A stretch of 64,000 bases of DNA from Novakomyces olei (GCA_016906335.1 JADEYG010000002.1:434001-498000); one strand, 5' to 3'; positions 1,167-21,092 are shown, counted from the stretch's first letter. Made by a program: numbers and translations. Notes: a model not told the origin generated them from the letters alone.

Positions 1167-1872
1167 TGTAAGGTGGCCCTTAGAGGGGAGCACCGCGGTG
1201 TAAACTCGCGTGTCGCTACAGGCGAACACGGACTGTCCTTTGCGAGACCGCTCGACAAAGGAAGTTCAATCGGGTACCGCGCGAAGCGAGTACCGAGAAA
1301 CGGGAACGTAGACTTGCGCCCGGCGCAAGAACTAAGGAAAAGGAAAAGGACGTTGTCCTTGAAAAGGCGACGGCGCTTCTCTAAAGCTTACCTGCTACAA
1401 GGTTATGTAGCAACTTTGAGATTATAAGCCCGTGGAGAGAGTTCTCTCCATGGGCGACTATGTAGACTATCCTATGAGGCTTAGCGGCTCGCTTAGCCAC
1501 TTCGCGGCCTAAGCCTCATCCCACCACGATCTCAATGCGATGGTCCCAGACCATCCGCATTGGGAAAGCGGTGGCGAGCTATGAACTCTATGGATCGATC
1601 TATCTAGCTTCGTAGCGATGCGCGATCGCTACTACTACTGTCATGCGCCGCGACGTGCCTACGTCGCGCGGGCATGGACGTGGACCTGCTTCGCGCGAGC
1701 CAGGTCCAACCTGCTCGCGAGCTAGGCCACTTACGCGCTTCGCGCGAGTAATGTCCAACATTACCTCGCGCGAGCTATTTAGATCTATCTAGCCTGAAGT
1801 CATCGCCTTTGGCGCTACAGGACTTCAGGCGTCGTTCGCTGTCGTGGTTCACGCGAGGCGGGGATCATGACA
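1167..1872 (-). repeat. 3' LTR of element A
   Basis: Direct repeat of 7365-8070; preceded on the minus strand by PPT AGAAAGGGGGGATAG. Confidence 0.97.
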
Positions 1873-2036
1873 CTATCCCCCCTTTCTAGGGCGAGGTCTC
1901 CGCGCCTATGAAAACCACGTTAGCTACTAGACTGCTATATAAGTGCGCTTTCGGCAATAAAACTATCTAAGTAATATAAAGTAATTTGCGGATGCAAAAC
2001 AAGAATTTTCGCTCTGCGTTCCGGATCAACAACAAC

Positions 2037-2492
2037 ATGTCGCTTGCTCATGTCAGAGATGCTATCGTGCCCTGCGAGTATTGCGTGGCAAACTCTTTGC
2101 CGTGCCGCTTCGTTCTCGGCACTGCACCGTTTGTGCGTCGCTGTATGGTCTGCGCGGCACGTCGCACCCGTTGCGAAGGAGGCCGTTTTCTTCATGACAA
2201 TGAGGAGAACGAGCGCCTTGTTGCCGCGCGTGAAGAACAGCGTGTGAGAGAGCGCGAGGAGCTGCAGCGTCGCCGCGAAAGACGTCGCGCGCGACAGCGA
2301 GCGCAGGAGGAAAGACGTCAGGCACCATTCGAGGTGCATGTAATTGCCGATGACGGTCCTCCGTCAACAAATTCGATCGTCGGTTCGGTTTCGAGTGCGC
2401 TGGCCCAGCGCGATGCGACTATCGCTCGCCTCGAGCGCCGCAACCGTGCGTTGGAGCGCGAGATTCTTTCGCTCCGTGCCGCTCGTCCGTAA
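2037..2492 (+). CDS. Antisense accessory ORF of element A: Zn(II)2Cys6-like domain + charged helix + C-terminal coiled coil (151 aa)
   Basis: CEYC-X6-C-X12-CMVC-X6-C motif; homologous to 12220-12651 from the shared MSLA start; TATATAA at 1936-1942; AT-rich AATAAA-containing 3' region about 2530-2640. Confidence 0.85.
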   Translation: MSLAHVRDAIVPCEYCVANSLPCRFVLGTAPFVRRCMVCAARRTRCEGGRFLHDNEENERLVAAREEQRVREREELQRRRERRRARQRAQEERRQAPFEVHVIADDGPPSTNSIVGSVSSALAQRDATIARLERRNRALEREILSLRAARP

Positions 2493-2719
2493 TTGTGTGC
2501 GTGACTCAACAGCCATTCCTCCTTGCGTTGTCCCATATTATTTGTTCGACAAGTAATTGAATATGTTTTTGTATAATTTTCTCGTAATAATTTAAACAAT
2601 AATAATCGCGGTATAATCAATAAATCAATAAATCACTTTAAGAGTTGAGTCTTAGTTTCGCGTGGGTGACGAAAGTTGAAGGTCGTCGCCCGAATAGGGA
2701 GCTCGCTTAGCATTCCCAT

Positions 2720-5700
2720 TTAAGAACCAGGTTTGTTCGGGTGTGCACGGTGGAATTCGTTTACCAAATCCATGCAGTTGTGTAAATGTTTCGCAGGCTC
2801 CCACGTGCGGTCGGAGGCGTCGTAGCCTTTCCAATGCACATAATATTGAAGTTGCTTGCGTCGGATGCGCGAGTCTAGAACTTGCTCGACTTCCCATTCC
2901 GGGTTAGCATCCAATATAACTGGAGGTGGTGGCGCGATCTGTTCTCGCGCGATCTGCGACACTGCGTTATGTCGCTCTAGCAATGAAGCGTGGAAGACAG
3001 GATGTATACGCATTGCCTTCGATAGTTCCAAGCGATATGCACGCAAACCAACGCGTGCGATAATCCTAAACGGTCCCAGCTTCTTGGCATCCAGCTTATC
3101 GCATGGCCGCGTAGTGCTAATATTTTTTCGCACTAGCCAGACTTGATCGCCAATAGCAAAACTTTTGTCGACGCGATGCTCATTTGCAAAGCGCGCCTGG
3201 TCGCTGAGAGACTTTTCGATTTCGACTTTCAATAAGCGATGTAGATTCCGTAGGTATTCGATACGTTCATCCGCGGATGGGCATTGTCGCGAAGATGAAA
3301 TCGTAAAGCGACATTTCGGGTTGTAGCCGTAAAAAGCGTAAAACGGTGTTGTCTTTGTAGACGACTGCTCTGAATTGTTGTACGCGAATTGAGCAAAAGG
3401 TAACAAATTGACCCAATTGCTTTGCTGATAGTTGCTGTAGATCCTCAGATATTGCTCTAAGATCTGGTTAAGCCTCTCTGTTTGGCCGTCGCTCTGTGGG
3501 TGGTACGCGGTAGACAACTTCTGCTGTATATCGCATTGCGAAAGCAAGTGTCGTGTAAACTGCGATACAAATACCGAACCCCTGTCAGAGACTATTTCGT
3601 CTGGTAGGCCATAGTTGGCAAATACGCGATGGGCGTAAATCAAAGCTAGCTCAGTAGCCTTAATAGATTCGCGTATTGGTATAAATATTCCGATTTTCGT
3701 AAATCGACAGGTGATTACCCATATGGAGTCGTAGGTTTTTTGTGTAATCGCATCGCGCGACTCCGGTAATTTCACAATGAAGTCCATTGAGATACTTTCC
3801 CAGGGTCTCGCTGGTACTCTCAGTGGGTGTAGTAGTCCATACGGTGCATGTCGCGAAGGCTTGTTTCGCGCACAAGTATCGCACGACTCGACGTAGCTAA
3901 ATATCTCTTTTCGCATGCGTGGCCAATAGTAGTTTCGCATGACTAAGTCCAACGTTTTGGCCTGGCCAGGGTGACCCGCGACATGCGAATCATGGCATGT
4001 CTGTAGTATAGCTAATCGCAAACGATTGTCGTTTGGGATGTATAGCAAACCCGAAAACGTTAGAAGACCCTTTTCGTTTATACTGTAGTTTCGCAGATGT
4101 TCCGACACTGGCTGCTTGCCGAGGTCCTCCATGACAACCTTGCAAGTCTTGTCTTTGCCGTAACATTGTTTAATCTGATCATCAATGCCTGTATCTTCTA
4201 CGGTCGCGAACAGGAAGTGCGATCTGTCCAATAGTGCCATAGTTCGCTCTGGTTTCTCCTGTTCCTTATCGCCGACATAATCGCTTCGCCTAGACAAGGC
4301 ATCCGCTTTGTGATTTAGCTTTCCAGCACGGTATTCAATAACGAAATCATAGGAAGCGATCAATTGCGACCATCGCATCTGTCTACGGCTAAGTACTCTT
4401 GCTGTAAGAAAGTACATGAGATTGCGGTGATCCGTATAAATTGTAGTGCGATGTAACGGACTCTCCAGGTAAACTCGCCATTCGCGAAGACATGCGACAA
4501 TAGCTAACAGCTCTTTGTCGTAGATATCATAGTTTACTTCCGCGCTAGTCATTTTTCGCGAGTAGAACGCGATGGGTCTCATTTCGTCGCTGTTGTCTTT
4601 CTGCGAGAGAATCCCACCGATCGCGAAGTCCGATGCGTCGGTTTCCAAATAACTTGGCTTCTGCGGGTCGAAATGCGCAAGGATCGGCGCACCCAGAAAA
4701 GCGTTCTTCAGAGTTTGGAAAGAGTCAATGCACTCCTTGGAGAAATTAAACTGCGCATCCTTCTTCAGTAAGCGGGTGAGAGGGATGGTAATTTTGCTGT
4801 AGTTTGCAATAAATCTGCGATAGTAATTTGATAGGCCTAAGAACGACATAACGTCTTTCGCGTTCTTGGGTTCAGGCCATGTCTCAATAGAATCAACTTT
4901 CGCTTTCTCCATAGACACTCCTTTCGTAGAGACAACAAAGCCTAGGAACTCTGTCGTGTCTGTGTGGAACTCGCATTTCTCTAGTTTCACAAATAAGTTT
5001 GCTTTGCGAAGTCGTTTCAGTACTTCGCGAACATGCGTCACATGCTCCTCCTCGGTGTCCGAATAGATCAAGATGTCGTCCAAGTATACAACAGCAAAGC
5101 GATCCAGACAATCGCGTAATGTGTCGTTCGCAAGAGCTTGGAAAGATGCCGGGGCGTTCGTGAGCCCGAAAGGCATAACCTGATATTCGTAATGTCCATA
5201 ACGCGTACGGAAGGCGGTTTTCCACTCGTCGCCTTCGCGTATACGGACAAGATTATACGCGCCACGGAGATCTAATCGCGTAAATATCGTCGACTGACGA
5301 ATGCGATCCAATAGCTCCGATATGAGCGGCAGCGCATAGCGATTTTTGACAGTTACCGCGTTTAGCCCGCGATAATCTACGCACAGTCTCAGCGAACCGT
5401 CCTTCTTTTTCACAAAAAGAATTGGAGCCCCCGCGGGCGATGAAGACGGCCTAATGAATCCCTTCGCTAGATTGTCTTTAATGTAGTCGCGTAGTGTTTG
5501 TAGCTCGCGTTCGGCCAGAGGATATATAGGCCCGAACGGCGGCTTCGCGCCTTCTGTCAACGGTATTGCGTGATCCCACGCCTGATGCTGTGGTAGAATG
5601 TCTGCATTTCTTTTCTCAAAAAGATCGCGAAAGTCTGCATACTCGGGAGGTATAGCGACGTTTTTGTCCTCGCTTTTAGCGTCGGTCGCGTATACGCACA

Positions 5701-6271
5701 GCAATCCCGAGTCGTTGCCTCGCGATAGCTTAGCAAATTCCGTCGCACTGATTTGCGATGGTTCGTCTTGTGCCTCGGGCTTCTTGAGGCAGTTTGCTAA
5801 GCAATAGGAAGACTCGAATTCGACTTTTGCACGTCTCCATGCAATCCTTGGCTCATGTTTGTCGAGCCATGGCTTTCCTAAAATAACGTCGTGTCCAGAG
5901 AGCGGTATCACGTTAAACATCATAGTCTCGCGATGTTCGCCTATGGTGACCTCCATGTTTTCAGTCTGGAAGCGAACACCTCCGGTGCGAATCGCTCTTC
6001 CATCCACAACTCGTAGTGGCTCAATCTTCGCCTTCTTCGTTATATCGATTATGCTTCTCGTAGCAAGGCTCTGGCTGATAAAATTCGACGTCGCGCCTGA
6101 GTCGATCAGCGCCTTCGCGTCCAGCTGGCCCTTGCTAGTTCTCAAATTTGCAGTAACTGTGAGATGTATTCCTCTGTCAGGTTCGGGTACCACTGACATC
6201 ACCTCCGAAAGCCTCGTGTCATTAACGCCCAGATCAGGCCTTTCTTTTAGACCTGGGCTCTCGCTTTTCCC
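2720..6271 (-). CDS. pol: Pol of element A (protease, RT, RNase H, integrase, chromodomain), expressed by -1 frameshift from gag
   Basis: LIDSGAT protease; YLDD RT; ETDASD RNase H; HHCC and DDE integrase; GPF motif; WEVEQVLDSR...YYVHWKGY...TWEP chromodomain. Confidence 0.97.
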   Translation of the reverse strand, partial: GKSESPGLKERPDLGVNDTRLSEVMSVVPEPDRGIHLTVTANLRTSKGQLDAKALIDSGATSNFISQSLATRSIIDITKKAKIEPLRVVDGRAIRTGGVRFQTENMEVTIGEHRETMMFNVIPLSGHDVILGKPWLDKHEPRIAWRRAKVEFESSYCLANCLKKPEAQDEPSQISATEFAKLSRGNDSGLLCVYATDAKSEDKNVAIPPEYADFRDLFEKRNADILPQHQAWDHAIPLTEGAKPPFGPIYPLAERELQTLRDYIKDNLAKGFIRPSSSPAGAPILFVKKKDGSLRLCVDYRGLNAVTVKNRYALPLISELLDRIRQSTIFTRLDLRGAYNLVRIREGDEWKTAFRTRYGHYEYQVMPFGLTNAPASFQALANDTLRDCLDRFAVVYLDDILIYSDTEEEHVTHVREVLKRLRKANLFVKLEKCEFHTDTTEFLGFVVSTKGVSMEKAKVDSIETWPEPKNAKDVMSFLGLSNYYRRFIANYSKITIPLTRLLKKDAQFNFSKECIDSFQTLKNAFLGAPILAHFDPQKPSYLETDASDFAIGGILSQKDNSDEMRPIAFYSRKMTSAEVNYDIYDKELLAIVACLREWRVYLESPLHRTTIYTDHRNLMYFLTARVLSRRQMRWSQLIASYDFVIEYRAGKLNHKADALSRRSDYVGDKEQEKPERTMALLDRSHFLFATVEDTGIDDQIKQCYGKDKTCKVVMEDLGKQPVSEHLRNYSINEKGLLTFSGLLYIPNDNRLRLAILQTCHDSHVAGHPGQAKTLDLVMRNYYWPRMRKEIFSYVESCDTCARNKPSRHAPYGLLHPLRVPARPWESISMDFIVKLPESRDAITQKTYDSIWVITCRFTKIGIFIPIRESIKATELALIYAHRVFANYGLPDEIVSDRGSVFVSQFTRHLLSQCDIQQKLSTAYHPQSDGQTERLNQILEQYLRIYSNYQQSNWVNLLPFAQFAYNNSEQSSTKTTPFYAFYGYNPKCRFTISSSRQCPSADERIEYLRNLHRLLKVEIEKSLSDQARFANEHRVDKSFAIGDQVWLVRKNISTTRPCDKLDAKKLGPFRIIARVGLRAYRLELSKAMRIHPVFHASLLERHNAVSQIAREQIAPPPPVILDANPEWEVEQVLDSRIRRKQLQYYVHWKGYDASDRTWEPAKHLHNCMDLVNEFHRAHPNKPGS
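6227..6271 (-). promoter_or_regulatory. -1 ribosomal frameshift signal of element A
   Basis: Slippery G GGA AAA, 6-nt spacer, stem GCCCAGGTC/GATCTGGGC; -1 frame is open into pol; same signal in B. Confidence 0.85.
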
Positions 6272-7194
6272 GGTTCCGTGATACTGTCCATAACCACCGA
6301 GATGCGTTGCTCATAATTGCGTTGCTTCTGTTTGCAATCACGTGCGCGATGACCTTCGCGTCCGCACGTAAAACATCTGTTCTCTTTCTTTCGACGCTGG
6401 CGTTCGTCGCTGGTAATGCTCTTCTTTTCGTAACTGGTAGCATCTACCTCCATGGGAGTGTATCCTTTGTTCGCGATCGTCGCGCCCCTATAGCCTGAAG
6501 CGCCCTTGGCGTTCGTACGGCTAGCGCTTTCGTAGTAACGATCCGACAACCTTTCGTCCACGCGTACAGACTTCTCAATTAAGTCTGACAATGTACGCGA
6601 TTTTTCCAACCGAGATAATTCGTCCTTAATTCGATCTTTCAATCCTTGATAATATTCGTAGCGTAAACTGTGATCGCTAAAATCCAAGTGCGAAGTGATC
6701 TGCTGAAAACGCGAAGTATACTCAGCAACAGATCCTCGCTGTTTGAGCAATGCTAGCTCCCGCTCAGCCTGACTAATGCGGTCGACGCTCCCAAATGTCG
6801 TGGAGAGCTCGTCGCAAAACAGGGCAAAGTCACTGGTAATTAGGCTTTCATCGTGGTCGCGCAAGTGGGGTTCAAACCACGCAAAAGCGGCACCGCGCAG
6901 ATAAGATACCGCAAACAGGACCTTCGCTTCGTCGTTGCGAAACTCATGTGGCTTGAGTCTCACGTATAAGCGAACCTGTGCAAGGAAAGTATCCACCGAT
7001 CTGCGATCACCTCTGAATGTATCCGGCTTCGAAATGCTTGGCCCTTCGCTGACTCCTGATCGTCGAGATCCCCGGGATCCCATTTCCTGGCGAAGGCCTT
7101 CAATAACCGATTTGTCCTTAACGCGCTCCTCTTGGAGCGACGCGATCTGCGCCTGCAGCGTCTGCAGAAACGCGTTCAAGTCCTCTTGACTCAT
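6247..7194 (-). CDS. gag: Gag of element A
   Basis: PDTFRG, SYLRGAAFAW, LKQRGSVAEY, PMEVD motifs and CCHC knuckle CFTCGREGHRARDC. Confidence 0.95.
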   Translation of the reverse strand: MSQEDLNAFLQTLQAQIASLQEERVKDKSVIEGLRQEMGSRGSRRSGVSEGPSISKPDTFRGDRRSVDTFLAQVRLYVRLKPHEFRNDEAKVLFAVSYLRGAAFAWFEPHLRDHDESLITSDFALFCDELSTTFGSVDRISQAERELALLKQRGSVAEYTSRFQQITSHLDFSDHSLRYEYYQGLKDRIKDELSRLEKSRTLSDLIEKSVRVDERLSDRYYESASRTNAKGASGYRGATIANKGYTPMEVDATSYEKKSITSDERQRRKKENRCFTCGREGHRARDCKQKQRNYEQRISVVMDSITEPGKARAQV

Positions 7195-7364
7195 CGTAAT
7201 TCAATAATTCGTTTGTGCTGCTAAACCGTAGCAAAGCACCCTTCGTCGCAACAACTTAGTGCGAAATAAAACTTGTAAATCGAAATTTGTGTACGCCTCC
7301 GTGCGTGACACCTTTCAACGCCGTGTAAATCTGTAGCTTAGACGAGCTCACGGGCTTATAATAG

Positions 7365-8070
7365 TGTAAGGTGGCCCTTAGAGGGGAGCACCGCGGTGTA
7401 AACTCGCGTGTCGCTACAGGCGAACACGGACTGTCCTTTGCGAGACCGCTCGACAAAGGAAGTTCAATCGGGTACCGCGCGAAGCGAGTACCGAGAAACG
7501 GGAACGTAGACTTGCGCCCGGCGCAAGAACTAAGGAAAAGGAAAAGGACGTTGTCCTTGAAAAGGCGACGGCGCTTCTCTAAAGCTTACCTGCTACAAGG
7601 TTATGTAGCAACTTTGAGATTATAAGCCCGTGGAGAGAGTTCTCTCCATGGGCGACTATGTAGACTATCCTATGAGGCTTAGCGGCTCGCTTAGCCACTT
7701 CGCGGCCTAAGCCTCATCCCACCACGATCTCAATGCGATGGTCCCAGACCATCCGCATTGGGAAAGCGGTGGCGAGCTATGAACTCTATGGATCGATCTA
7801 TCTAGCTTCGTAGCGATGCGCGATCGCTACTACTACTGTCATGCGCCGCGACGTGCCTACGTCGCGCGGGCATGGACGTGGACCTGCTTCGCGCGAGCCA
7901 GGTCCAACCTGCTCGCGAGCTAGGCCACTTACGCGCTTCGCGCGAGTAATGTCCAACATTACCTCGCGCGAGCTATTTAGATCTATCTAGCCTGAAGTCA
8001 TCGCCTTTGGCGCTACAGGACTTCAGGCGTCGTTCGCTGTCGTGGTTCACGCGAGGCGGGGATCATGACA
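7365..8070 (-). repeat. 5' LTR of element A
   Basis: Direct repeat of 1167-1872; followed on the sense strand by the PBS 7349-7362. Confidence 0.97.
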
Positions 8071-8075
8071 GTAAT

Positions 8076-8600: not shown

Positions 8601-9312
8601 TGTAAGGTGGCCCTTAGAGGGGAGCACCGCGGTGTAAACTCGCGTGTCGCTACAGGCGAATACGGACCGTCCTTTGTTAGACCGCTCGACAAAGGAAGTT
8701 CAATCGGGTACCGCGCGAAGCGAGTACCGAAAAACGGGAACGTAGACTTGCGCCCGGCGCAAGAACTAAGAAAAAGGGAACAGACGTTGTCCTACAGGAA
8801 TACGACGGAGCTCCTCTAAAGCTTACCTGCTACAAGGCTATGTAGTGTCATGATCCCCGCCTCGCGCGAACCACGACAGCGAACGACGCCTGAAGTCCTG
8901 TAGCGCCAAAGGCGATGACTTCAGGCTAGATAGATCTAAATAGCTCGCGCGAGGTAATGTTGGACATTACTCGCGCGAAGCGCGTAAGTGGCCTAGCTCG
9001 CGAGCAGGTTGGACCTGGCTCGCGCGAAGCAGGTTCACGTCCATGCCCGCGCGACGTAGGCACGTCGCGGCGCATGACAGAACTAGTAGCGATCGCGCAT
9101 CGCTACGAGGCTAGATAGATCGATCCATAGGGTACATAGCTCGCCACCGCTTTCCCAATGCGGATGGTCTGGGACCATCGCATTGAGATCGTGGTGGGAT
9201 GAGGCTTAGGCCGCGAAGTGACTAAGCGAGCCGCTAAGCCTCATAGGATAGTCTACATAGTCGCCCATGGAGAGAACTCTCTCCACGGGCTTATAATCTC
9301 AAAGTTGCTACA
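8601..9312. mobile_element. Diverged family-A LTR with internal inversion (8601-8845 minus, 8846-9312 plus)
   Basis: Both pieces match LTR-A; TGTAG at 8841-8845 is duplicated in inverted form as CTACA at 9308-9312. Confidence 0.9.
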
Positions 9313-9812
9313 TGTAATGAACCGCGAAGTTCCATTCGCGAAGTTCCAATTTGGAACTTTTAACGGTTCTTCTCATAGTTGTTCGTAGGATCTTTTCATA
9401 GTTCCGTGCGGAAGCTGTATCTTCCGCACGAAGTGGAACTAGGCCCGACTGGGCAATTCAGCCACCGCGTGGCTGGACTTCGCCAGCCACGCAACAGTCA
9501 CGCCAAAGTTCTATAAATAGTTCCGCACCCGGGAAGAGATTTCTCTTCACGGGTTAACTCTCTCTTTAATACAAGAATAGAATTCAATCTACGAGTTCTA
9601 CGAACTCTCCTCCTTTTGCTGCGGCTACCTCCGCTGTTTTAGCAACAGTACCTGTAGAGGCAGGATAGGCTCCACCGAAGGTTCTTCGAACTTCGGCGAC
9701 CTTTCAGTTTCTCACAGAAGCGGTCAATTAGAGCCACACTCGATACGGGCTCCATGTGTAAGAAACTGGAAGGTCGCCGAAGTTCGAAGAACCTTCGGTG
9801 GAGCCTATCCTG
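9313..9812 (+). mobile_element. Truncated LTR of a third gypsy-like family (C)
   Basis: TGTAAT start; TATAAATA at 9512; hairpin ending ACGGGTT as in LTR-A/B; long inverted repeat 9661-9812. Confidence 0.6.
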
Positions 9813-10512
9813 TGTAAGGTGGCCCTTAGAGGGGAGCACCGCGGTGTAAACTCGCGTGTCGCTACAGGCGAACACGGACTGTCCTTTGCGAGACCGCTCG
9901 ACAAAGGAAGTTCAATCGGGTACCGCGCGAAGCGAGTACCGAGAAACGGGAACGTAGACTTGCGCCCGGCGCAAGAACTAAGGAAAAGGAAAAGGACGTT
10001 GTCCTTGAAAAGGCGACGGCGCTTCTCTAAAGCTTACCTGCTACAAGGCTATGTAGCAACTTTGAGATTATAAGCCCGTGGAGAGAGTTCTCTCCATGGG
10101 CGACTATGTAGACTATCCTATGAGGCTTAGCGGCTCGCTTAGCCACTTCGCGGCCTAAGCTTCATCCCACCACGATCTCAATGCGATGGTCCCAGACCAT
10201 CCGCATTGGGAAAGCGGTGGCGAGCTATGAACTCTATGGATCGATCTATCTAGCTTCGTAGCGATGCGCGATCGCTACTGTCATGCGCCGCGACGTGCCT
10301 ACGTCGCGCGGGCATGGACGTGGACCTGCTTCGCGCGAGCCAGGTCCAACCTGCTCGCGAGCTAGGCCACTTACGCGCTTCGCGCGAGTAATGTCCAACA
10401 TTACCTCGCGCGAGCTATTTAGATCTATCTAGCCTGAAGTCATCGCCTTTGGCGCTACAGGACTTCAGGCGTCGTTCGCTGTCGTGGTTCACGCGAGGCG
10501 GGGATCATGACA
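9813..10512 (-). mobile_element. Family-A solo LTR without TSD
   Basis: 700-bp near-identical LTR-A copy; flanks TCCTG/GCTTC differ. Confidence 0.95.
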
Positions 10513-11019
10513 GCTTCATGTTTTTACGGGACCTTACTGAGAAGGGCAGAATTATTATGGACTATATTTCCACAAAAGAACAAGTGGCGGATATACTTAC
10601 AAAGCCCTTGTGCAAAAAAATATTTAACTACCTACAACAAAAGATACTTAAAGGCGAAACACGTGAAAGTGACGACAACAAGCTTGAGAGGGAGTATAGG
10701 AATATGTCAAGCTTGGACGTCACAGAAAAAGAACAGGAAGGCTGGCTACAGAAAAGAGGAGGAATGGCTGGAGTGGCTGGAGTGGCTGGAGTGGCTGGAG
10801 TGGCTGGAGTGGCTGGAGTGGCTGGAGTGGCTGGAGTGGCTGGAGTGGCTGGAGTGGCTGGAGTGGCTGGAACTGAGTACAAAGAGGCTTGCGCTACCAA
10901 AGTGTAACTCGGTGGCTGGAACCAAAGAAACTATATAGTACAGCGTCAGTAGACTTAGAAAAGTAGCTAAAAGGAGATACAACACTATTCTCTACAACAA
11001 GCCAAATTAAATTTCTACA
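10513..11019 (+). mobile_element. 3' end of copia family E: RNase H C-terminus, PPT and 3' LTR (10695-11019)
   Basis: YISTKEQVADILTKPL motif; PPT GAGAGGGAG; LTR TATAGG...TTTCTACA with a 9-bp repeat. Confidence 0.92.
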
Positions 11020-12219
11020 CACTAGACAACAAACTCCCTCTTTTATCATCATGTGTGGAATATTGTCTTAATTCTTCCAATTAGAAATTTTCATTTTCAA
11101 AGAATTTAACATCCCTGGAGATAATTATTTTGTTGTTCACAGGATTCCATGATCGAAAGGATTTTGCATTCGACTGATAACCGACCATAGCATATTTTTC
11201 TCCCCTGACAATTAATTTGTTTGGCCTGTCGGGCTTGGGCTTCGAATAAACAATACAAAAAAAAGAACTCTCAAATGGTCCACTTGTGGTACATTTCCGT
11301 AAACCATCTCGTAAGGAGTGCGACCGTGTAAGACGGTCCTTACAGCTACAATCGCTGGAGGCCGGCCGTGTATAGTTTAAATAAAGTAAAGGAATAAGAA
11401 AGACCAGGAAAGCAGAAAGCGATTACTGTAAAGCTTACCAGGAGTAATATAATATATTACTCCCACTTTGAGATAATCAACCCGTGAAGGGCGAGAGGCC
11501 TTCACGGGCAACTATAAACTAAACTAAGTTGCGGAGGAGCGGATGCTCCTTCGCATTCTAAACTACTCTTCCCAAGCTAACTTATGCGAAGGTCGCACAA
11601 GTTAGAGAGGGAAGCTCTCAGCCTAAACTAATCTATGAAATAACTATGAATGTTCTCGCGCTAGCGGAGTGCGAAGGGTCGCACTCGCTAGCGTGCGAGA
11701 ATGAGAACGGGAAGCGAGGTCCGTGCACATTGTGCATGGAGCCCCTCGCTCCCGTGGGCCAAGCTGGCTTAGTGCGCGTACCTACATGCGCACTAAGACA
11801 ACTTCTACGTCCCAAGACCATCGCATTACGCGCCGACTGGTCTTGGGCCGCGTTGGCGAAGCTTGCGACGCGCGGACATCCCAAGTCCGACTACAGGCGT
11901 CGCCCCTCGCTTCCCAACGCGGTTGTCAGGGACTCGCCAAGGCGAGGATCATGACAGTATCCCCCCCTCCCTTGGGCGAGGTCCCCGCGCCCGCAAAACA
12001 TAAAATATTCCATAAAAATAGAAAGGCGAACAAAATAAACGCTAATTTCAATTGCCGCGTGTCACAATAATATTTTCTCCTCAGTAAACGCGTAAATAAA
12101 CATATAGAATAGCATGGGAAAATAAAAGGGGTGTTCGCGTTTTGTTGCAGAGGGGTAAAGAGGCAAAACGCGAAGATAAATAGTATCCAGTCGCGTTCGC
12201 AAAGACAGTTCTGAACGCG

Positions 12220-12651
12220 ATGTCGCTTGCACGTGTGACTGTGTCCGAGAAGCCGTGCGGCTATTGTGTTTCGCAGGGGAGGCGCTGTGAGTTCTTCATG
12301 ACAGCCATCCCTCGCGTCCGTCGCTGCTTAGCGTGTGCGGCGCGTAAAACCAAGTGCGAGGGCGCGATGTTTATGTCGCCGACCCTGTTGAATTCGCGCA
12401 TACGCGGGTCGATCGTCGAGCGCGAGTATCGTAAGTATGATAACGCTCGTAAGGCAAAGTTGGCCTCCACTGTTCCTCGCGTTGCGACGCCCGTTGTAGA
12501 AGTCGCCCAATGCGCGGCAACCGATTCGTCTGAGGGCCTCGGGGTTGCTGTTGAAAGAGCATTGGCCGCTAAAGATCGCGAAATCGATTCGCTCCGTCAG
12601 CAGGTCCTAGAGCTGAAAGCGGAAATTTCGGCTTTGCGCGGCTTGGAATGA
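12220..12651 (+). CDS. Antisense accessory ORF of element B: Zn(II)2Cys6-like domain + C-terminal coiled coil (143 aa)
   Basis: CGYC-X6-C-X12-CLAC-X6-C; 25/48 ungapped identities to the A ORF N-terminus; same position and orientation as in A. Confidence 0.85.
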   Translation: MSLARVTVSEKPCGYCVSQGRRCEFFMTAIPRVRRCLACAARKTKCEGAMFMSPTLLNSRIRGSIVEREYRKYDNARKAKLASTVPRVATPVVEVAQCAATDSSEGLGVAVERALAAKDREIDSLRQQVLELKAEISALRGLE

Positions 12652-12817
12652 GCGCCAAAATTCTTCAAATATGCGATACATCTTGTTTTGATTTTAATAA
12701 TTTTTAATACATTTTCAAAAAAAAATTTCCAAATAGCGATAAATAACTAGTGCGAATTGTGTATTATATCGCAGTCGTAAACAAAAATCAAGAGTTGAGT
12801 CTCGCGATTGCGTAAGA

Positions 12818-15800
12818 TTACGTGAGTTGAATGACGTAACCTGTATCGCGATTAACGTAAACATCATAGCTTCGGCTTAGCGGGTGTAATCTGTGAAATT
12901 CTTTCACTAAATCGTCGCAATTTGTCAAATTGCCTGCCGGCTCCCAAGTGCGATTAGCACTATCGTATCCCTTCCAATGTACAAAATATTCCAATTTATT
13001 TCTTCGCTTCCTGGAGTCCAACACTTTCTCTACCTCCCACTCTGGTGTATTCTCAATTATTATTGGTGGTGGTGGTGCTGTCTGCTGTCGCACAATCGTA
13101 GACGTAGACTTGTACGATTCCAATAAAGAAGCATGGAATACAGGAAGTATTTTCATCGTGTTCGGTAAATCCAACTTGTATGCACGTAAACCGATACGTT
13201 CCAAGATTGTAAAAGGTCCAATTTTCTTGTAATCCAACTTGTCGCTTGGCCTAGTGGTACTGATGTTCTTTCTCACTAGCCATACTTTTTGGCCGACTTC
13301 AAAATCCTTGTCGACACGGTGCGTATTAGCAAACCGTGCTTGATCGCTAATGGCGTGCTTGATCTCAATCTGTAAAAGGCGATGTAGTGTCCTCAAAAAA
13401 TCAATCCGATTGTCCGCCGATGGGCATTGCCGTGCTGTTGCTATCGTAAAACGGCATTTGGGGTGATACCCATACAAAGCATAACTAGGTGTCGCTTTTG
13501 TCGATGATTGCTCAGTATTGTTATATGCGAACTGTGCAAAAGGTAGCAAGTTTACCCAATTCGTTTGTTGGTAATTGCTGTAAATTCTCAAATATTGTTC
13601 GAGGCTCTGATTAAGCCTTTCCGTTTGTCCATCGCTCTGGGGATGGTACGCAGTTGATAACCTTTGCTTGATATCACAATGTGCGAGTAAATGCTTCGTA
13701 AAATGTGATACGAAAACTGATCCACGATCTGAGATAATTTCTTCTGGCAGTCCAAAGTTAGCAAATACTCTGTGAGCGTATAGCAATGCTAGTTCTTTCG
13801 CGCTCATGGTCTCGCATATTGGTACAAAGATGCCTATCTTCGTAAAGCGACATACTATAACCCAAATTGAGTCGTAGTCTTTGCCTGTGATGACATCTCT
13901 TGACACCGGGAGCTTCACAATGAAGTCCATAGCAATGCTTTCCCAAGGCTTTGTAGGTACTCGCAACGAATGTAATAGACCGTAGGGAGCATGATGCGAT
14001 GATTTACTTCGTGCGCAAGTGTCGCATGACTCCACATAGTTAAATACGTCCTTTCGCATCCTTGGCCAGTAATAGTTCCTTGTCACAAGCTCTAGCGTCT
14101 TAGCCTGTCCGGGGTGACCTGAAGTCTGCGAATCATGACATTCTTGCATGATTGATAATCGCAAATCGTTGTCTCTGGGTATGTAAATCAAACCCGAGAA
14201 CATTAAAAGACCTTCCTTGTCCATTGTATAATTCTCCAAATGAGCAGCATCGGGCTTGCTCTTTAACTCCTCAATGATATTCTTGCAAATGCTGTCCTTC
14301 TCGTAGCATTTCTTAACATCCTGTGCTAGCGTTTTGTTGTCCTCAATCGCAAACACAAATTGCGATTTGTCCAAAAGCACCATTGTTCGTTCTGGCTTTT
14401 CCTCCTCTTCGCTGCTAACGTAATCGCTTCTTCGCGATAAGGAGTCAGCCTTGTGGTTAAACTTTCCCGCACGATACACGATCACAAAATCGTAAGACGC
14501 AAGTAACTGCGACCAGCGCATTTGCCGTCTATTCAGGACACGCGCGGTCCAAAAGTACACAAGATTGCGATGATCCGTGTATATCGTGGTTTTGTGAAGG
14601 GGACTCTCCAAGTATACCCTCCATTCCCGAAGACATACAACAATAGCTAATAGCTCCTTGTCGTGAATGTCGTAGTTCGTCTCTGCGCTTGTCATCTTGC
14701 GCGAGTAAAATGCGATTGGTCTCATGTCGCCGTTTTCATCCTTTTGCGAAAGGATCCCGCCTATCGCAAAATCTGAGGCGTCCGTTTCCAAGAAGCTCGG
14801 CTTTTGTGGATCGAAGTGCACAAGAATAGGTGCGCCTAAGAATGCATCCTTCAACGCATTGAATGACTCCCTGCATTCGTCGCTAAACACGAACTTTGTA
14901 TCCTTCTTTAAAAGCCGGGTAAGAGGTGCCGTAATCTTGCTGTAGTTGGCGATGAATCTTCGGTAATAGTTCGCCAGTCCCAGGAACGACATAACCTCCT
15001 TAACATTCTTTGGCTCGGGCCATGTTTCAATCGATTTGACCTTCGTATTTTCCATCGACAGACCTTTCGTTGAAATCACGAAGCCAAGAAACTCCGTTGT
15101 GTCGGTATGGAATTCGCATTTCTCCAATTTGACAAATAAATTTGCCTTGCGAAGTCTCTCCAATACTCCGCGCACGTGCTCCACGTGTTCTTCCTCTGTA
15201 TTCGAGTAAATCAGTATATCGTCCAAGTAAACGACAACGTATCGATCAAGGCAATCTCGCAAAGTATCATTGGCGAGTGCTTGAAACGAAGCCGGGGCAT
15301 TCGTAAGCCCAAACGGCATGACTTGGTACTCGTAGTGGCCGTACCTTGTACGAAAGGCCGTTTTCCATTCGTCGCCTTTTCGTATCCTAACCAAATTATA
15401 TGCACCGCGAAGATCCAATCGCGTAAAAATAGTTGCTTGGCGAATGCGATCTAGAAGTTCCGAGATAAGCGGTAATGCATATCTGTTTTTGACAGTGATC
15501 GCGTTCAGACCGCGGTAATCGACGCATAATCTGAGCGATCCATCTTTCTTTTTGACAAATAAGATCGGCGCCCCCGCGGGCGACGACGACGGTCGTATAA
15601 AACCTTTAGCGAGGTTTTCCTTGATATAATCTCTCAGCGTTTGCAATTCGCGTTCGGCGAGCGGGTAGATCGGGCCAAAAGGCGGCTTCGCATTTTCGAC
15701 CAAGGGTATCGCATGATCCCAAGGTTGATGTTTCGGCAAAACGTCCGCGTTCTTCTTCTCAAATAGGTCGCGATATCCCTCGTAGAATCCAGGCAATGTA

Positions 15801-16411
15801 ACGCGAGGCTTGACATCTTGCTCGTCCATAGCGTACACACATAAAATACCTGATTCTCCAGAACGGGCCAATCTTGCAAATTCGGTTGCGCTGACTTGCA
15901 TGGATTCGGATAATGTACTGCACTTCAAACAGTTCGCCAAACAGTAGTTCGACTTGAACTCGACGTTTGCGCGACTCCATCCGATCGTAGGCTCATGCTT
16001 GTCCAACCATGGCTTGCCCAAGATAGCATCGTATCCACGAAGAGGTATGACATTGAAGGTCATCCTTTCTCGATGTTCGCCAATTGATATATCCATCTCG
16101 CTGGTGTGAAAGCGAATACCTCCTGACTTGATTGTCCTTCCATCAACGACTCTGATGGGCTCGGTCTCGCTCTTCTCCGTAAGCTTAATAAAAGCATGCG
16201 ATGCGAGCTTCTCGCTGATAAAATTAGAGGTAGCTCCTGAGTCAATCAGGGCTCTCGCGTTCAACTCTCCATCCTCTGTCTTGACTTTCACGACGACAGT
16301 CAGATGCTTTGCTTTGTCCGGTTCCGTAAAAACTGTCATAACTTCTGGTGGCCTAAATAGTTGTTTGCCCAGATCAGGCCTTTTCATTGGACCTGGGCGT
16401 TCGCTTTTCCC
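12818..16411 (-). CDS. pol: Pol of element B (PR, RT, RH, IN, chromodomain), via -1 frameshift
   Basis: Same motifs as pol A; GGGAAAA at 16405-16411 and stem-loop 16367-16398. Confidence 0.96.
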   Translation of the reverse strand, partial: GKSERPGPMKRPDLGKQLFRPPEVMTVFTEPDKAKHLTVVVKVKTEDGELNARALIDSGATSNFISEKLASHAFIKLTEKSETEPIRVVDGRTIKSGGIRFHTSEMDISIGEHRERMTFNVIPLRGYDAILGKPWLDKHEPTIGWSRANVEFKSNYCLANCLKCSTLSESMQVSATEFARLARSGESGILCVYAMDEQDVKPRVTLPGFYEGYRDLFEKKNADVLPKHQPWDHAIPLVENAKPPFGPIYPLAERELQTLRDYIKENLAKGFIRPSSSPAGAPILFVKKKDGSLRLCVDYRGLNAITVKNRYALPLISELLDRIRQATIFTRLDLRGAYNLVRIRKGDEWKTAFRTRYGHYEYQVMPFGLTNAPASFQALANDTLRDCLDRYVVVYLDDILIYSNTEEEHVEHVRGVLERLRKANLFVKLEKCEFHTDTTEFLGFVISTKGLSMENTKVKSIETWPEPKNVKEVMSFLGLANYYRRFIANYSKITAPLTRLLKKDTKFVFSDECRESFNALKDAFLGAPILVHFDPQKPSFLETDASDFAIGGILSQKDENGDMRPIAFYSRKMTSAETNYDIHDKELLAIVVCLREWRVYLESPLHKTTIYTDHRNLVYFWTARVLNRRQMRWSQLLASYDFVIVYRAGKFNHKADSLSRRSDYVSSEEEEKPERTMVLLDKSQFVFAIEDNKTLAQDVKKCYEKDSICKNIIEELKSKPDAAHLENYTMDKEGLLMFSGLIYIPRDNDLRLSIMQECHDSQTSGHPGQAKTLELVTRNYYWPRMRKDVFNYVESCDTCARSKSSHHAPYGLLHSLRVPTKPWESIAMDFIVKLPVSRDVITGKDYDSIWVIVCRFTKIGIFVPICETMSAKELALLYAHRVFANFGLPEEIISDRGSVFVSHFTKHLLAHCDIKQRLSTAYHPQSDGQTERLNQSLEQYLRIYSNYQQTNWVNLLPFAQFAYNNTEQSSTKATPSYALYGYHPKCRFTIATARQCPSADNRIDFLRTLHRLLQIEIKHAISDQARFANTHRVDKDFEVGQKVWLVRKNISTTRPSDKLDYKKIGPFTILERIGLRAYKLDLPNTMKILPVFHASLLESYKSTSTIVRQQTAPPPPIIIENTPEWEVEKVLDSRKRRNKLEYFVHWKGYDSANRTWEPAGNLTNCDDLVKEFHRLHPLSRSYDVYVNRDTGYVIQLT

Positions 16412-17315
16412 AAATCGGAAAATTCGTGCGTGAATGCAGCGACGTGTTGCTGATTGTACGTCTTCTTCTTCTGCTTGCATTCTCTTGCTCGATGACCCAC
16501 GCGTCCACAGTTAAAGCATTTGATGTTGCTTTTGCGATGGTTGTCATCTTCCTTTTCTAAACTAATCGCGTCCACATCCATAGGAGTAAAACTTGTACTC
16601 GCGTTTGCAGCCGGGCGGTTGTTGGAATATTTCACGGAACCGCGGCTTGCACTCTCGATGTGCCTGTCGGATATTCTTCCATCCACGCGAACTGATATCT
16701 CAATCATTTCATTCAAAGTGCGGGGTCTGTCCATCCTGGAAAGCTCATCCTTGATGCGATCCTTCAGCCCCTGATAATACATAAACGTCAGCGCACTGTC
16801 ATTGAAATCCAAATACGAAGCAATTCTTTGAAAAATGCTCGCATAAGATGCTGCTGATCCACGTTGTCTCAAGGCGGCTAACTCTCTTTGCGCCTGACTC
16901 ACCCTGTCGACCTTGCCGAAATTCGCGGCCAACGCTTCGCAAAAGGCTTCAAAAGTAGGTACTACCGAAGCGAAGTCGTTGTTGCGAAGGTGTGGTTCGA
17001 ACCACGCAAATGCGGCGTCCCGCAAATACGAAGCTGCGAACAAAACCTTCGAACGTCGTCGCGAAACTCGTGCGGTTTCAACATGATGTAAAGGCGAAGC
17101 TGCGCCAAAAAATTCTCGACCATTTTGCGGTCCCCACGAAACGCGTCGGGCTTCATCACCGCTGGTCCGTCACTCGTCGGGGCTCTCTTAGCTCGCGAAC
17201 CGATCTCCTGGGTCAGATGCGCAATGTGCGATCGCCCTTTCTCGTTCTCTGCCTTCAACTCGGCAATCTGAGTTTGCAGGGATTGCAAAAAGGTGTTAAG
17301 CTCCTCTTGCGACAT
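16384..17315 (-). pseudogene. gag: Gag of element B with a 1-bp deletion at about 17050
   Basis: MSQEELNTF...HEFRDD in one frame and KVLFAASYL...CFNCGRVGHRAREC in another; colinear with gag A. Confidence 0.85.
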
Positions 17316-20032
17316 CTTGTCCCTCGTACCGCAAATATCGTATCGTAATCGTTCTTCCAGAACCGTTCTTCGTAAATTGTTCACTCAATCGTCGACTATC
17401 CAAGCCGATACTCAATAACTCAAAATAACTGTGTTTCACCGGAACACTCGATAACTCAAAATTCTCAAACTCGAATCCACGTCGTTCACTCGACGCTTTA
17501 ACCGTTTTAACTTCCGTAAAAATCCGTAAAAATAAGTACCGAACCGCGTCTTTGACTCGACGTCCGAAACTCTCTCGAATCCGAAGGAAATAAAACACAA
17601 ACAATTCCAAAAAACTTCAAACTTCAACGACCGGGACGGGTTGATTATAGTGTAAGACGGTCCTTACAGCTACAATCGCTGGAGGCCGGCCGTGTATAGT
17701 TTAAATAAAGTAAAGGAATAAGAAAGACCAGGAAAGCAGAAAGCGATTACTGTAAAGCTTACCAGGAGTAATATAATATATTACTCCCACTTTGAGATAA
17801 TCAACCCGTGAAGGGCGAGAGGCCTTCACGGGCAACTATAAACTAAACTAAGTTGCGGAGGAGCGGATGCTCCTTCGCATTCTAAACTACTCTTCCCAAG
17901 CTAACTTATGCGAAGGTCGCACAAGTTAGAGAGGGAAGCTCTCAGCCTAAACTAATCTATGAAATAACTATGAATGTTCTCGCGCTAGCGGAGTGCGAAG
18001 GGTCGCACTCGCTAGCGTGCGAGAATGAGAACGGGAAGCGAGGTCCGTGCACATTGTGCATGGAGCCCCTCGCTCCCGTGGGCCAAGCTGGCTTAGTGCG
18101 CGTACCTACATGCGCACTAAGACAACTTCTACGTCCCAAGACCATCGCATTACGCGCCGACTGGTCTTGGGCCGCGTTGGCGAAGCTTGCGACGCGCGGA
18201 CATCCCAAGTCCGACTACAGGCGTCGCCCCTCGCTTCCCAACGCGGTTGTCAGGGACTCGCCAAGGCGAGGATCATGACAGACCGTGAACTCGCGTTGGA
18301 ACACGATTTTTTATGTAAACACTTGTGCGAACTGCTTCTGGCCAAAGGCATTCTGGAAGATTACTGCCGATAAGAGCGGTTCTGGCCTTGTTTAAAATTG
18401 TTCTGTTTGCGCGTTCAGCAACACCGTTTTGCTGAGGTGTATGTGGAATAGTTGTCTCAGAATTAATGCCTTTGTCTGTATAGAATTGTTTGAGCTCGTT
18501 ATTGACAAATTCACCGCCATTGTCAGTTCGAATAATTTTTACTCGCTTGTTAAATTGTGTTTCAATTAAATTGACAACCGTTTTAACGAGTTGACACACT
18601 TCGCTTTTATTTAGAAAAAAATATACGAATGTATAACCCGAGTAATCGTCGATAAAAGTCAAAAAATACCGCAATTTCTTTTGTGAATTTACACGAACTT
18701 CACACACATCACTGTGAATTCGTTCGAATAAACTTGTAGCGCGGTCGTGGCCTTTTTCAAATCGTAGACGCGTAAATTTTCCCTGTGCGCATTCGTGACA
18801 CGAAAATGTCGCTGGAATTTTAAGGTCATTCAATTTTCCATTCGCACATCCGTTAATTAATTTTGATAAATAATTCATGTTGACATGCATAAACCGATTA
18901 TGCCATTGTTCAGCACTGTTTTCTGGTGTTGTAATTAAGGCACTTTGATAATCATTATTTTTATTGTCTCTTACAAACGTGTAAAGACCTCGTTTAATTT
19001 TTCCAGTCGTGATAATACTTCCGTTTGCTCTATCAATTATTTTAACCGAATCTTCGGCGGTAAAACAGACATCAATTTTTTCTCGACCTAGTTTTCGAAT
19101 CGATAGCAAGTTAAATTCAAGTTCAGGAACCCACAGTGTTTCTTTTAAGTCAAGAACGATATTTGGCCCCAGTTGAATACTCGCCGTTCCAAATGCTTTA
19201 GCAAGCGTTGTATCTCCAGCAGCGGTTTTTATATTAATGTTGCAGGGATGCAGAGTACCTTTAAACATTGCTTTATTAAATGTGATGTGTTCTGTTGCTC
19301 CGCTGTCTAGTATCCATTCGTTGGATTTAATATTATCGATATTCATAAGAAGCGCACTGAAGTATGGTTGAACAATATTATTATTATTAAACTCCTTTTT
19401 GTTGCATGTTGCAACACGATGACCAGGCTTCCCACATCTGAGGCATATTCTGTTTTTTCCAGCACACGTCTTCCGTATGTCCAGATTTATTACAGAACTT
19501 GCAATTCATATTGGACGTCGCAACGTTTGCAGTTGCAATGTTTGCAGTTGCCTTAACACATTTTCGCGCAAATGACCGGACCCAAAACATTGCTTCTGCC
19601 AAACTCATCTTTATACATTCCTCTGGGGAACGTTGAGAGACAAAAGACTCGATTCCAGCACAATTCTCAATCGCATTAAAATAAGCCGTGACAAATAAGC
19701 CGTGACAAATAAGCCGTGACAAAGAACTTTTCCAATTTTCCATAGTCGCGTGACATGGAATCAAACGTAAGGGGAAGTTGGTCGGAACTTAGCATTTTTG
19801 TGTGAAACGACATAAAGCAATTGGCCAAATTTGTAAAGTTATTGTTGAAAGTGGTGATGTTTTCGGGATCTTCCAGCTTTAATGAGGCTAGCTCGGCCGC
19901 TGTTTGAAAGACATAAGATGCAATATCTTTCTCAATAACCACTTCGATCTCCAGGAGAAGCTCTGTAGGACTGCGATATGCGCTATTGACGTAAGGCAAG
20001 TATTCCTTCGTCGCGTTGCAGGGTGACAAGAA

Positions 20033-20738: not shown

Positions 20739-21092
20739 AAGAAATACTTTCGTTTCTTTGTTACCGGCGATTTCGAGGTTTTCGAGCTTTTCTTTGAATG
20801 GCACAACTTTCGACAAATGCCAACGGTTCAAAAGGCGGTACAGTTCTCCCTTCCAAGACGGATAGTAAATCAACCCTTTGAGCTGGGGAATTTTGATTAT
20901 TGGCTGCTCTCTGGAATTAATTACTTTCATTTTGTTCTCCGCCGGATTTTCAACTTGTTCCATTTCAGACTCTTAATCTGTAGTTGTGAGCAATTTATGA
21001 TTGTTAATATTGTTAATTAATTTGTTGTTCGACTATTTATTTATAAACGTTTCCCCCACTGTGGCTTAGATGTATTTATCAGAGTATTTTGA

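Follow-up and report, generated by a model that had tools for sequence, protein, structure and literature searches.

What does a retrotransposon encode on the strand opposite its own gag and pol genes, and is such a reading frame a gene at all? The question is raised by a 64,000-nucleotide stretch of the Novakomyces olei genome (GCA_016906335.1, JADEYG010000002.1:434001-498000; hereafter the window), the left third of which is a nest of long terminal repeat (LTR) retrotransposons. Two of these, elements A and B, are chromoviruses, that is, Ty3/gypsy elements with a chromodomain. In both, an open reading frame (ORF) lies between the pol stop codon on one side and the polypurine tract (PPT) and 3′ LTR on the other, on the strand opposite gag-pol. 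The distance from pol stop to PPT is ~850 nt per element, which is beyond the needs of an ordinary chromovirus, and the plus-strand ORF fills this gap. We refer to the two antisense ORFs as aORF-A and aORF-B (Table 1). Judged by its conservation, the ORF is a genuine accessory gene that the retrotransposon maintains under selection, and its predicted product combines a six-cysteine domain with a leucine zipper.

The carriers are typical members of their group. Each has gag, a pol that runs from protease through reverse transcriptase, RNase H and integrase to the chromodomain, LTRs with TG..CA ends and a 5-bp target-site duplication (TSD). Element A is assigned to the chromoviruses because its pol ends in SH3_Tf2-1 and a chromodomain, following the reverse transcriptase, RNase H and integrase. 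The pol proteins of A and B are 74–75% identical. Within element A, the LTR pair is 100% identical across 706 bp, and since the LTRs of both elements are identical and the 5-bp TSDs are present, A and B are considered very recent insertions. The gag of element B consists of two overlapping minus-strand ORFs (16962-17384 and 16384-17043) despite the identical LTRs of this element, so that either a very young copy has suffered a frameshift or the shift is programmed.

A preliminary description of this DNA, made from the sequence alone, had proposed an intact ORF opposite gag-pol in element A, with a homologue at the same position in element B. Both parts hold: aORF-A translates without an internal stop, and the two proteins can be aligned from end to end (BLASTP E 4e-20, 34–36% identity), sharing the start MSLA, all six cysteines, the segment RRC..CAAR.T.CEG and the heptad a and d residues. 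The DNA around them behaves differently. When the 850-nt spacers of A and B are compared by blastn, only the PPT block (30 nt, 87% identity), 17 nt at the ATG and a 13-mer align. As the proteins align full-length while the spacer DNA shares just these three short stretches, conservation is at the protein level only. It is strongest at the N-terminus, where the first 52 codons are 50% identical, compared with 27% for the remainder. Third codon positions differ at a proportion of 0.69, which is saturation. The A–B comparison of nonsynonymous (dN) and synonymous (dS) divergence proposed in the preliminary description could be carried through in part: the method of Nei and Gojobori (NG86) gives a dN of 0.82 and a saturated dS of 2.43, so that the ratio of at most about 0.34 is to be read as an upper bound only. 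The dN between A and B is 0.51 for the Cys domain, 0.35 for gag and 0.17 for pol, and by this measure the antisense gene is evolving faster than gag and pol.

Two chance tests bear on the same question. The window holds 324 stop-to-stop ORFs of at least 60 aa, and the six-Cys pattern occurs in two of them, which are exactly aORF-A and aORF-B. When the pol–LTR spacer was shuffled 2000 times by mononucleotides, an ATG-initiated ORF of the observed length was reached in 5 shuffles for A and in 8 for B. Three minus-strand ORFs of 100–134 aa overlap aORF-A and have no counterpart in B. Taken together with the protein-level conservation, aORF-A and aORF-B very probably represent a real protein-coding gene.

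The sequence context of aORF-A resembles that of a small transcription unit. The ORF is a GC island (55–66% GC) with AT-rich flanks, and both the GC content and the GC at third codon positions (GC3) of the antisense ORFs (0.58–0.62) exceed those of pol (0.49–0.52). The TATATAA and the AT-rich 3′ region with AATAAA, to which the preliminary description had drawn attention, were both located; the 5′ region with its TATATAA may act as a promoter, and the AATAAA pair lies in a stretch of 22–32% GC. The stops of the antisense ORF and of pol are 227 nt apart in A and 166 nt apart in B. Between these convergent stops, the 13-mer AAGAGTTGAGTCT is identical in the two elements (2640-2652 in A, 12790-12802 in B) and is followed by CGCG-rich sequence, while the rest of the spacer is unalignable. 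This 13-mer may be a cis signal, either the 3′-end signal of one of the two transcripts or an RNA element. A scan for promoters and terminators of the bacterial type gave results at chance level, and the model is irrelevant to a eukaryote. The DNA sequencing run X1 covers the whole stretch. One of its contigs over aORF-A carries a C>T change at 2047 (codon 4, second base) and departs from the window at 2303 into unrelated sequence; in the same run, word depth over the LTR is ~3x that of the internal region. It seems that variant or truncated copies are present in the strain.

The N-terminal part of the product is defined by six cysteines at residues 13, 16, 23, 36, 39 and 46. The resulting arrangement, C-X2-C-X6-C-X12-C-X2-C-X6-C, is as the preliminary description had read it, occupies the same columns in aORF-B and fits the Zn2Cys6 pattern C-X2-C-X6-C-X5-12-C-X2-C-X6-8-C. 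A profile was built from eight such domains, two from the window and six from the related elements described below, and was searched against 177,635 sequences of the PDB. All 14 matches at E <= 10 were Zn2Cys6 proteins, the best being Cep3 (0.0043), LAC9 (0.011) and GAL4 (0.06). An AlphaFold2 (AF2) model of aORF-A from the A+B alignment has a mean predicted local distance difference test (pLDDT) score of 74.4 and places two short helices at residues 14–18 and 37–42, one per CxxC. A domain-only model from the eight-sequence alignment (mean pLDDT 72.6) shows the same two helices. Foldseek returned no significant PDB match for either the full or the domain-only model; ranks 1–22 of the full model (E 0.49–6.1) and ranks 1–16 of the domain model (E 1.6–5.4, TM score 0.45–0.58 on the query) are all Zn2Cys6 DNA-binding domains, and the lower ranks of the domain model include ZZ and RING zinc modules. 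VIA-align wide, a fold search independent of Foldseek, also puts Zn2Cys6 DNA-binding domains on top, with weak scores. By pattern and best resemblance, the Cys domain looks most like a Zn2Cys6 domain, with scores typical of a tiny domain.

The domain differs from Gal4 in where its charge lies. The loop between the second and third cysteines reads VANSLP in A and VSQGRR in B, and the basic residues are found between the fifth and sixth cysteines, as AARRTR in A and AARKTK in B, in agreement with the CAARRTRC motif singled out in the preliminary description.

Downstream of the Cys domain, the model of aORF-A contains two further helical regions. The first, comprising residues 55–94, is a long, highly charged helix rich in Arg and Glu, which includes RRRERRRARQR, a string that by eye resembles a nuclear localization signal. 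The second is the C-terminal zipper. Here, L122, I129, N136 and I143 occupy the heptad a positions and V118, R125, L132, L139 and L146 the d positions; these positions are conserved in aORF-B, and the heptad string of the preliminary description, IARLERRNRALEREILSL, is found at residues 129–146. When two copies of residues 100–151 were modeled together, the homodimer score was 0.46, compared with 0.15 for the best of three controls. The mark set for this tool was reached by 21 of 30 solved one-chain pairs and by none of 23 single chains (for eukaryotes, 17 of 29 and 0 of 30). The runs concur in at least 86% of contacts, the pLDDT of the partner is at least 75, and the contacts are in register at residues 118, 122, 125, 129, 132, 136, 139, 143 and 146. 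The zipper is thus predicted to form a parallel, in-register homodimer, which agrees with the dimeric protein proposed earlier. It lies ~70 residues from the Cys cluster and is not adjacent to it. Residues 96–118, immediately before the zipper, are acidic or neutral, and no bZIP match was obtained in Pfam at E <= 10. As no basic region adjoins the zipper, aORF-A is not a basic leucine zipper (bZIP) protein.

Is the gene confined to these two elements? A word-indexed search of 5.8 billion proteins returned no homologue of the aORF-A protein or of the A+B alignment, ESM Atlas searches with aORF-A and aORF-B gave scores of at most 0.78, a metagenome scan with the aORF patterns found none, and no host gene among the proteins of the window is related to them. 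As the antisense protein itself retrieved nothing, metagenome contigs were searched instead with the integrase–chromodomain end of pol. This pol C-terminus found 80 chromovirus loci (labeled L005, L012 and so on). At least 500 nt downstream of pol is present in 52 of these and at least 1200 nt in 33, so that many of the 80 cannot be judged for an antisense ORF because the downstream sequence is short. The six-Cys pattern occurs in nine loci, in eight of which (L005, L012, L014, L034, L035, L036, L053 and L058) it lies within an ORF that is antisense to pol and starts just downstream of it; the ninth is a loose match elsewhere. Two more, L062 and L077, carry the C-terminal part of an L058-type ORF up to the contig end, which brings the total to 10 of 80 loci. 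The intact metagenomic ORFs are 173–250 aa long and have an N-terminal Cys domain plus a coiled coil. Loci L034, L035 and L036 are circular permutations of one repeated unit of ~8.3 kb, and for this reason the antisense ORF is taken to belong to the repeat. None of the five metagenomic loci inspected for LTR pairs had one. In L012 (3877-4485) and L014 (5124-5645), the 3′ end of the antisense ORF overlaps that of pol by ~50–60 nt.

The ORFs of L005, L012, L014 and L034–L036 are homologous to one another, and relatives are present in public data. Searched against 3382 ORFs, where noise begins at 0.33, the L012-type profile (A5) finds L014 at 1.9e-9 and both L034–L036 and L005 at 6e-4. L053 and L058, which are 88% identical in DNA, show a dN/dS of 0.41 in the Cys part and 0.18–0.29 in the coiled-coil part of the ORF, compared with 0.17–0.18 in pol. 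An alignment of the eight ORFs finds 21 public proteins, all unannotated, which fall into two subfamilies. Public protein data contain at least 15 additional proteins of the L012 type, and the 12 that were aligned with the L012 ORF are 44–66% identical. One L012-type member has 30 ESM Atlas cluster matches at 0.9 or more; among the matches listed are three Ascomycota clusters of 122, 99 and 77 members, one of which has been automatically named ‘Zn(2)-C6 fungal-type domain-containing protein’. Two weak domain matches were also seen, one to DUF5651 at residues 19–44, before the Cys domain, of the L014 ORF (5127-5645, minus strand; E 0.0027, 18 bits, cut-off 27) and one to DUF3716 in a member of the L012 type (E 0.077).

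The distribution of the ORF follows the pol phylogeny. In a careful pol tree of 29 rows, limited to loci with one stop-free high-scoring segment pair of at least 330 aa (53 loci were left out), elements A and B group with L005, L012, L014 and L034–L036 on one side of a branch supported at 95/94. All eight rows carry the ORF. A quick tree of 82 rows recovers this group (SH-aLRT 95), to which no row that lacks the ORF or is unjudged belongs, and places L053, L058, L062 and L077 in a second group elsewhere; the 31 loci in which 1200 nt or more of downstream sequence contain no such ORF fall outside both. The trait requires two changes on the unrooted tree, and gains cannot be told from losses because the position of the root is not fixed. 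By this distribution, the product looks like a lineage-wide accessory protein encoded by the element. Since the ORF recurs across a clade defined by pol and is intact in two elements that have just transposed, it appears to matter to the element.

Antisense genes in this position have precedents. The statement in the preliminary description that Ty3/Tf-type elements normally encode only gag and pol needs qualifying, as antisense extra ORFs are known from plant elements and from Boty-like chromoviruses (PMC7264820, PMC8365987, PMC4227169). In plants, additional antisense ORFs in LTR retrotransposons were recognized decades ago, and in Botrytis in 2011; what they do is still unsettled (PMC7264820). 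The closest case is brtn, the antisense gene of Boty-like Ty3/gypsy elements in Botrytis cinerea and Sclerotinia (Zhao et al. 2011, Virology 417:248, as summarized in PMC7264820, PMC8365987, PMC4227169 and PMC5987419). Like aORF-A and aORF-B, brtn as described there is an additional gene of a fungal gypsy element with a chromodomain, placed on the other strand from gag-pol in the interval that separates pol from the 3′ LTR. Boty primers (PMC3197504) have no match in the window at up to three mismatches, so a Boty identity of elements A and B is not demonstrated. In plants, the antisense aORF-3R is found in Grande, RIRE2, Retand, PvRetro13 and Tat lineages with PMD or Tr28 domains (excerpts of PMC7264820 and PMC4408406). 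It shares position, orientation, conservation within a family and, in some cases, a C-terminal coiled coil with the genes described here; in contrast, it belongs to another kingdom and to non-chromovirus lineages, has PMD or transposase 28 domains, and is not reported in those excerpts to have a zinc cluster. In a literature search, with subscription journals mostly outside its range, no publication came up in which an antisense ORF of a fungal retrotransposon is connected with a zinc cluster. The architecture of the antisense ORF was already known from brtn.

As for the protein, Zn2Cys6 proteins are the only solved folds or sequences that surface on top for aORF-A and aORF-B. The likeness to the Gal4-type factors (Gal4, Lac9, Ppr1, Put3, Leu3, Hap1, Pho7 and Cep3) comprises the Cys spacing, a modeled helix per CxxC, a dimerizing coiled coil and a fungal host. 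In contrast to these factors, the aORF domain scores under the Pfam cut-off, has a 12-residue central loop and carries its basic residues in the C5–C6 rather than the C2–C3 loop; the zipper is some 70 residues downstream, the protein has 151 aa with no middle-homology or activation region, and it is encoded by a mobile element. A possible functional parallel is offered by antisense proteins of retroviruses such as HBZ of human T-cell leukemia virus type 1 (HTLV-1), a leucine-zipper protein of the nucleus whose gene lies on the antisense strand close to the 3′ LTR and which modulates transcription of the element itself. HBZ differs in that it comes from an animal retrovirus, is a bZIP rather than a zinc-cluster protein and has no sequence relation to the aORFs; the analogy would be one of function.

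The explanation that we favor is as follows. The antisense ORF would be an accessory gene of the retrotransposon itself, expressed as its own transcription unit from the AT-rich stretch beside the PPT toward the 3′ end of pol. Its product would have three parts: an N-terminal, Gal4-like six-Cys module; a long charged helix, which is probably nuclear-targeting; and a C-terminal zipper, which would make a parallel homodimer. Lacking any domain for activation or ligand sensing, such a protein would be a bare dimeric DNA-binding module at the service of the element in trans. Its task could be to adjust LTR transcription, or else to tether or target the DNA of the element. Taken as a whole, this explanation has about an even chance of being right. 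Its parts differ in strength: that the product is a Zn2Cys6-like dimer is fairly probable, while its action for the element as a DNA-binding regulatory or targeting factor is a tentative proposal that reaches even chances at best. Zinc binding, dimerization in the cell, DNA binding and the target are all proposed from the models and patterns above, and the role is borrowed by analogy from the retroviral antisense regulators.

A number of results weigh against this explanation. Pfam PF00172 (Zn_clus) gives 11.0 bits (E 0.5) for aORF-A and 16.5 bits (E 0.0095) for aORF-B, both under the 21-bit cut-off, as were all six metagenomic ORFs tested, and the alignments are partial, with the second, basic Cys triad matching the first half of the profile. 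The Gal4-type cluster of the preliminary description thus stands on the Cys spacing, the PDB profile, Foldseek and VIA-align wide, where scores are weak, and fails at Pfam; the comparison with Zn_clus by profile and by structure that was suggested there divides along the same line, with Zn2Cys6 domains on top of the fold searches and none significant in Foldseek. In Gal4, basic residues of the C2–C3 loop contact the CGG half-sites, and the first Cys loop of the aORF domain is without these DNA-contacting residues. With 12 residues, the C3–C4 loop is near the upper limit of the Zn2Cys6 range. CGG/CCG pairs spaced 0–15 nt apart are not enriched in the LTRs, with 5 in A against a shuffle mean of 21.5 and 6 in B against 12.5. 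The AF2 models, whose confidence is only moderate, may echo the Cys pattern, and the result for the dimer may reflect the model's memory of solved zippers. As for expression, three RNA-seq runs under the same species label gave 0 reads over 1167-7364; this span includes the LTR and gag-pol, so the result is no test of expression. Finally, the sequences of A and B stand apart. A phmmer search of 1.84 billion representative proteins found no homologue of either, the one match being spurious (a repetitive, Cys-rich protein of 460 aa). Profiles of A/B and of the metagenomic ORFs gave no mutual match in either direction at E <= 10, A/B were likewise missed at E <= 10 by a profile of the Cys domain from which the window sequences had been left out, and hhalign of the A/B profile (A1) against the L012 type (A5) gave a probability of 0.6%. 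As there is no sequence link, a common origin of the A/B and metagenomic ORFs rests on position, orientation, architecture and the pol clade.

How do other explanations fare against the same evidence? That the ORF and its Cys pattern arose by chance and are without function is close to refuted: GC-rich sequence does keep frames open, as seen in the three minus-strand ORFs opposite aORF-A, but the shuffles seldom reach the observed length, element B has a homologous ORF, the Cys pattern is limited to these two ORFs in the window, and the same layout recurs in related elements. It is very improbable that the antisense RNA, rather than a protein, is what matters. The ORF is convergent with pol and in L012 and L014 even overlaps its 3′ end, and non-coding antisense transcripts of Blumeria hordei retrotransposons have been reported (PMC10648671). 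Yet between A and B the protein is conserved and the DNA of the region is not; the frame, the start context, the six cysteines and the heptads are kept across saturated synonymous divergence, and the dN/dS of L053 against L058 is 0.2–0.4.

The remaining two explanations accept the protein and dispute its task, and both are unlikely. In one, the gene is a captured fragment of a host Zn2Cys6 factor that acts as a decoy, competing or heterodimerizing with the host factor and so blunting silencing or a stress response, rather than regulating the LTR directly. A protein made only of a DNA-binding-like module and dimerization helices, with no regulatory domain, would suit a decoy, as would the lack of a CGG/CCG excess in the LTRs; the GC and GC3 of the ORF are higher than in pol, and its restriction to two parts of the pol tree fits capture events. 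However, no host protein related to aORF-A/B came up in any search, and the window holds no related host gene. In the other, the zinc module does not recognize DNA. The six cysteines would merely stabilize a small fold in a structural or adaptor factor, which binds element RNA, Gag or integrase, or which aids nuclear import or the choice of integration site. The sub-threshold Pfam score and atypical charge distribution, the weak fold scores, the protein-binding ZZ and RING modules at lower Foldseek ranks and the long, highly charged Arg/Glu helix all lean this way. What speaks for DNA binding instead is that the top matches of three methods are, without exception, DNA-binding Zn2Cys6 domains, and that a zinc cluster paired with a dimerizing coiled coil is the standard layout of this class of DNA-binding proteins.

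The surroundings of the two elements show how active the region has been. Since extra family-A LTR copies lie at 8601-10512 and 20033-20738, this family has hit the region repeatedly. Each copy of the family-A LTR contains the palindromes CTCGCGAG and CTCGCGCGAG two times; they are absent from the remainder of the 64 kb, and in the element B LTR they are not conserved. An 84-aa ORF, MALRGEHRGVNSRV..., recurs in every family-A LTR and is probably just a frame that happens to be open there. Between 18273 and 34082 lie several elements and fragments of the Ty1/copia type, some of them as inverted duplicates (27678-28940 on the minus strand compared with 30384-34082 on the plus strand), and a 9-bp tandem repeat (GGAGTGGCT-like, reading WLEWLE...) marks the 3′ ends of Ty1/copia copies at 10685-10880 and 33856-34024. 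From 36000 to 64000, the window appears by eye to be gene-dense, ordinary fungal sequence, with a GH76/Dfg5-like protein, a class II fructose-bisphosphate aldolase, a ZIP transporter, a GATA-finger protein and a CRAL-TRIO protein recognized in the same way.

Table 1. Coordinates of the features of elements A and B and of family-A LTR copies, counted from the first nucleotide of the window
Feature	Position	Strand	Remarks
Element A, complete chromovirus (Ty3/gypsy with chromodomain)	1167-8070	-	6904 bp; LTRs, TSD, Pfam domains
TSD of element A	1162-1166 and 8071-8075		GTAAT, 5 bp
3′ LTR of element A	1167-1872	-	TG...CA ends; 5′ LTR at 7365-8070
PPT of element A	1873-1889	-	minus-strand string AGAAAGGGGGGATAG
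AT-rich 5′ region of aORF-A	1890-2036	+	TATATAA at 1936-1942
aORF-A, antisense accessory ORF	2037-2492	+	151 aa plus stop, no internal stop
Six-cysteine domain of aORF-A, Zn2Cys6-like	2073-2174	+	C13-C46
Long charged helix of aORF-A	2199-2318	+	residues 55-94, Arg/Glu-rich; AF2 pLDDT 88-96
C-terminal leucine-zipper helix of aORF-A	2367-2480	+	AF2 helix at 111-148
AT-rich 3′ region between the convergent aORF-A and pol stops	2493-2719	+	AATAAA at 2619-2624 and 2627-2632
pol of element A	2720-6202	-	Pfam: protease, RVT_1 (reverse transcriptase), RNase H, integrase, SH3_Tf2-1, chromodomain
gag of element A	6247-7194	-	Pfam: Retrotrans_gag, Ty3_capsid, zf-CCHC
Element B, second chromovirus	11327-18280	-	6954 bp; same build as element A
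LTRs of element B	11327-11956 and 17651-18280	-	identical, 630 bp; TSD GACCG
aORF-B, antisense accessory ORF	12220-12651	+	143 aa; homologue of aORF-A
pol of element B	12818-16480	-	
Palindromes of family-A LTRs	1714, 1765, 7912, 7963, 8944, 8997, 10354, 10405, 20131, 20184		
Further family-A LTR copies	9813-10512; 20033-20738; 8846-9313; 8601-8845		98.9%; 99.3%, inverted; partial, inverted; 92.7%
84-aa ORF of family-A LTRs	1173-1427, 7371-7625, 9798-10073, 20478-20963	+	

What would the antisense gene mean for fungal chromoviruses? If its product binds DNA, it bears on how these elements are regulated or targeted, and on where the large Zn2Cys6 family of fungi exchanges its members. The layout of a zinc cluster plus a dimerizing zipper leads to a concrete biochemical prediction, namely that the protein binds zinc, forms a dimer and recognizes a DNA motif. 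That a whole clade of fungal chromoviruses carries a Gal4-type, zipper-dimerized DNA-binding protein on its antisense strand, as a counterpart of the antisense bZIP of HTLV-1, is the boldest form of this idea and is doubtful at present. If it were true, hundreds of copies would lie unrecognized among the ‘hypothetical’ and ‘Zn(2)-C6 domain’ proteins of Ascomycota genomes, and the element would bring along its own transcription factor, which would set the activity of its LTRs or the sites of its integration. Genes would then have flowed, in either direction, between mobile elements and the largest family of fungal transcription factors. If the aORF product does bind DNA, these elements would be spreading ready-made DNA-binding proteins through fungal genomes.

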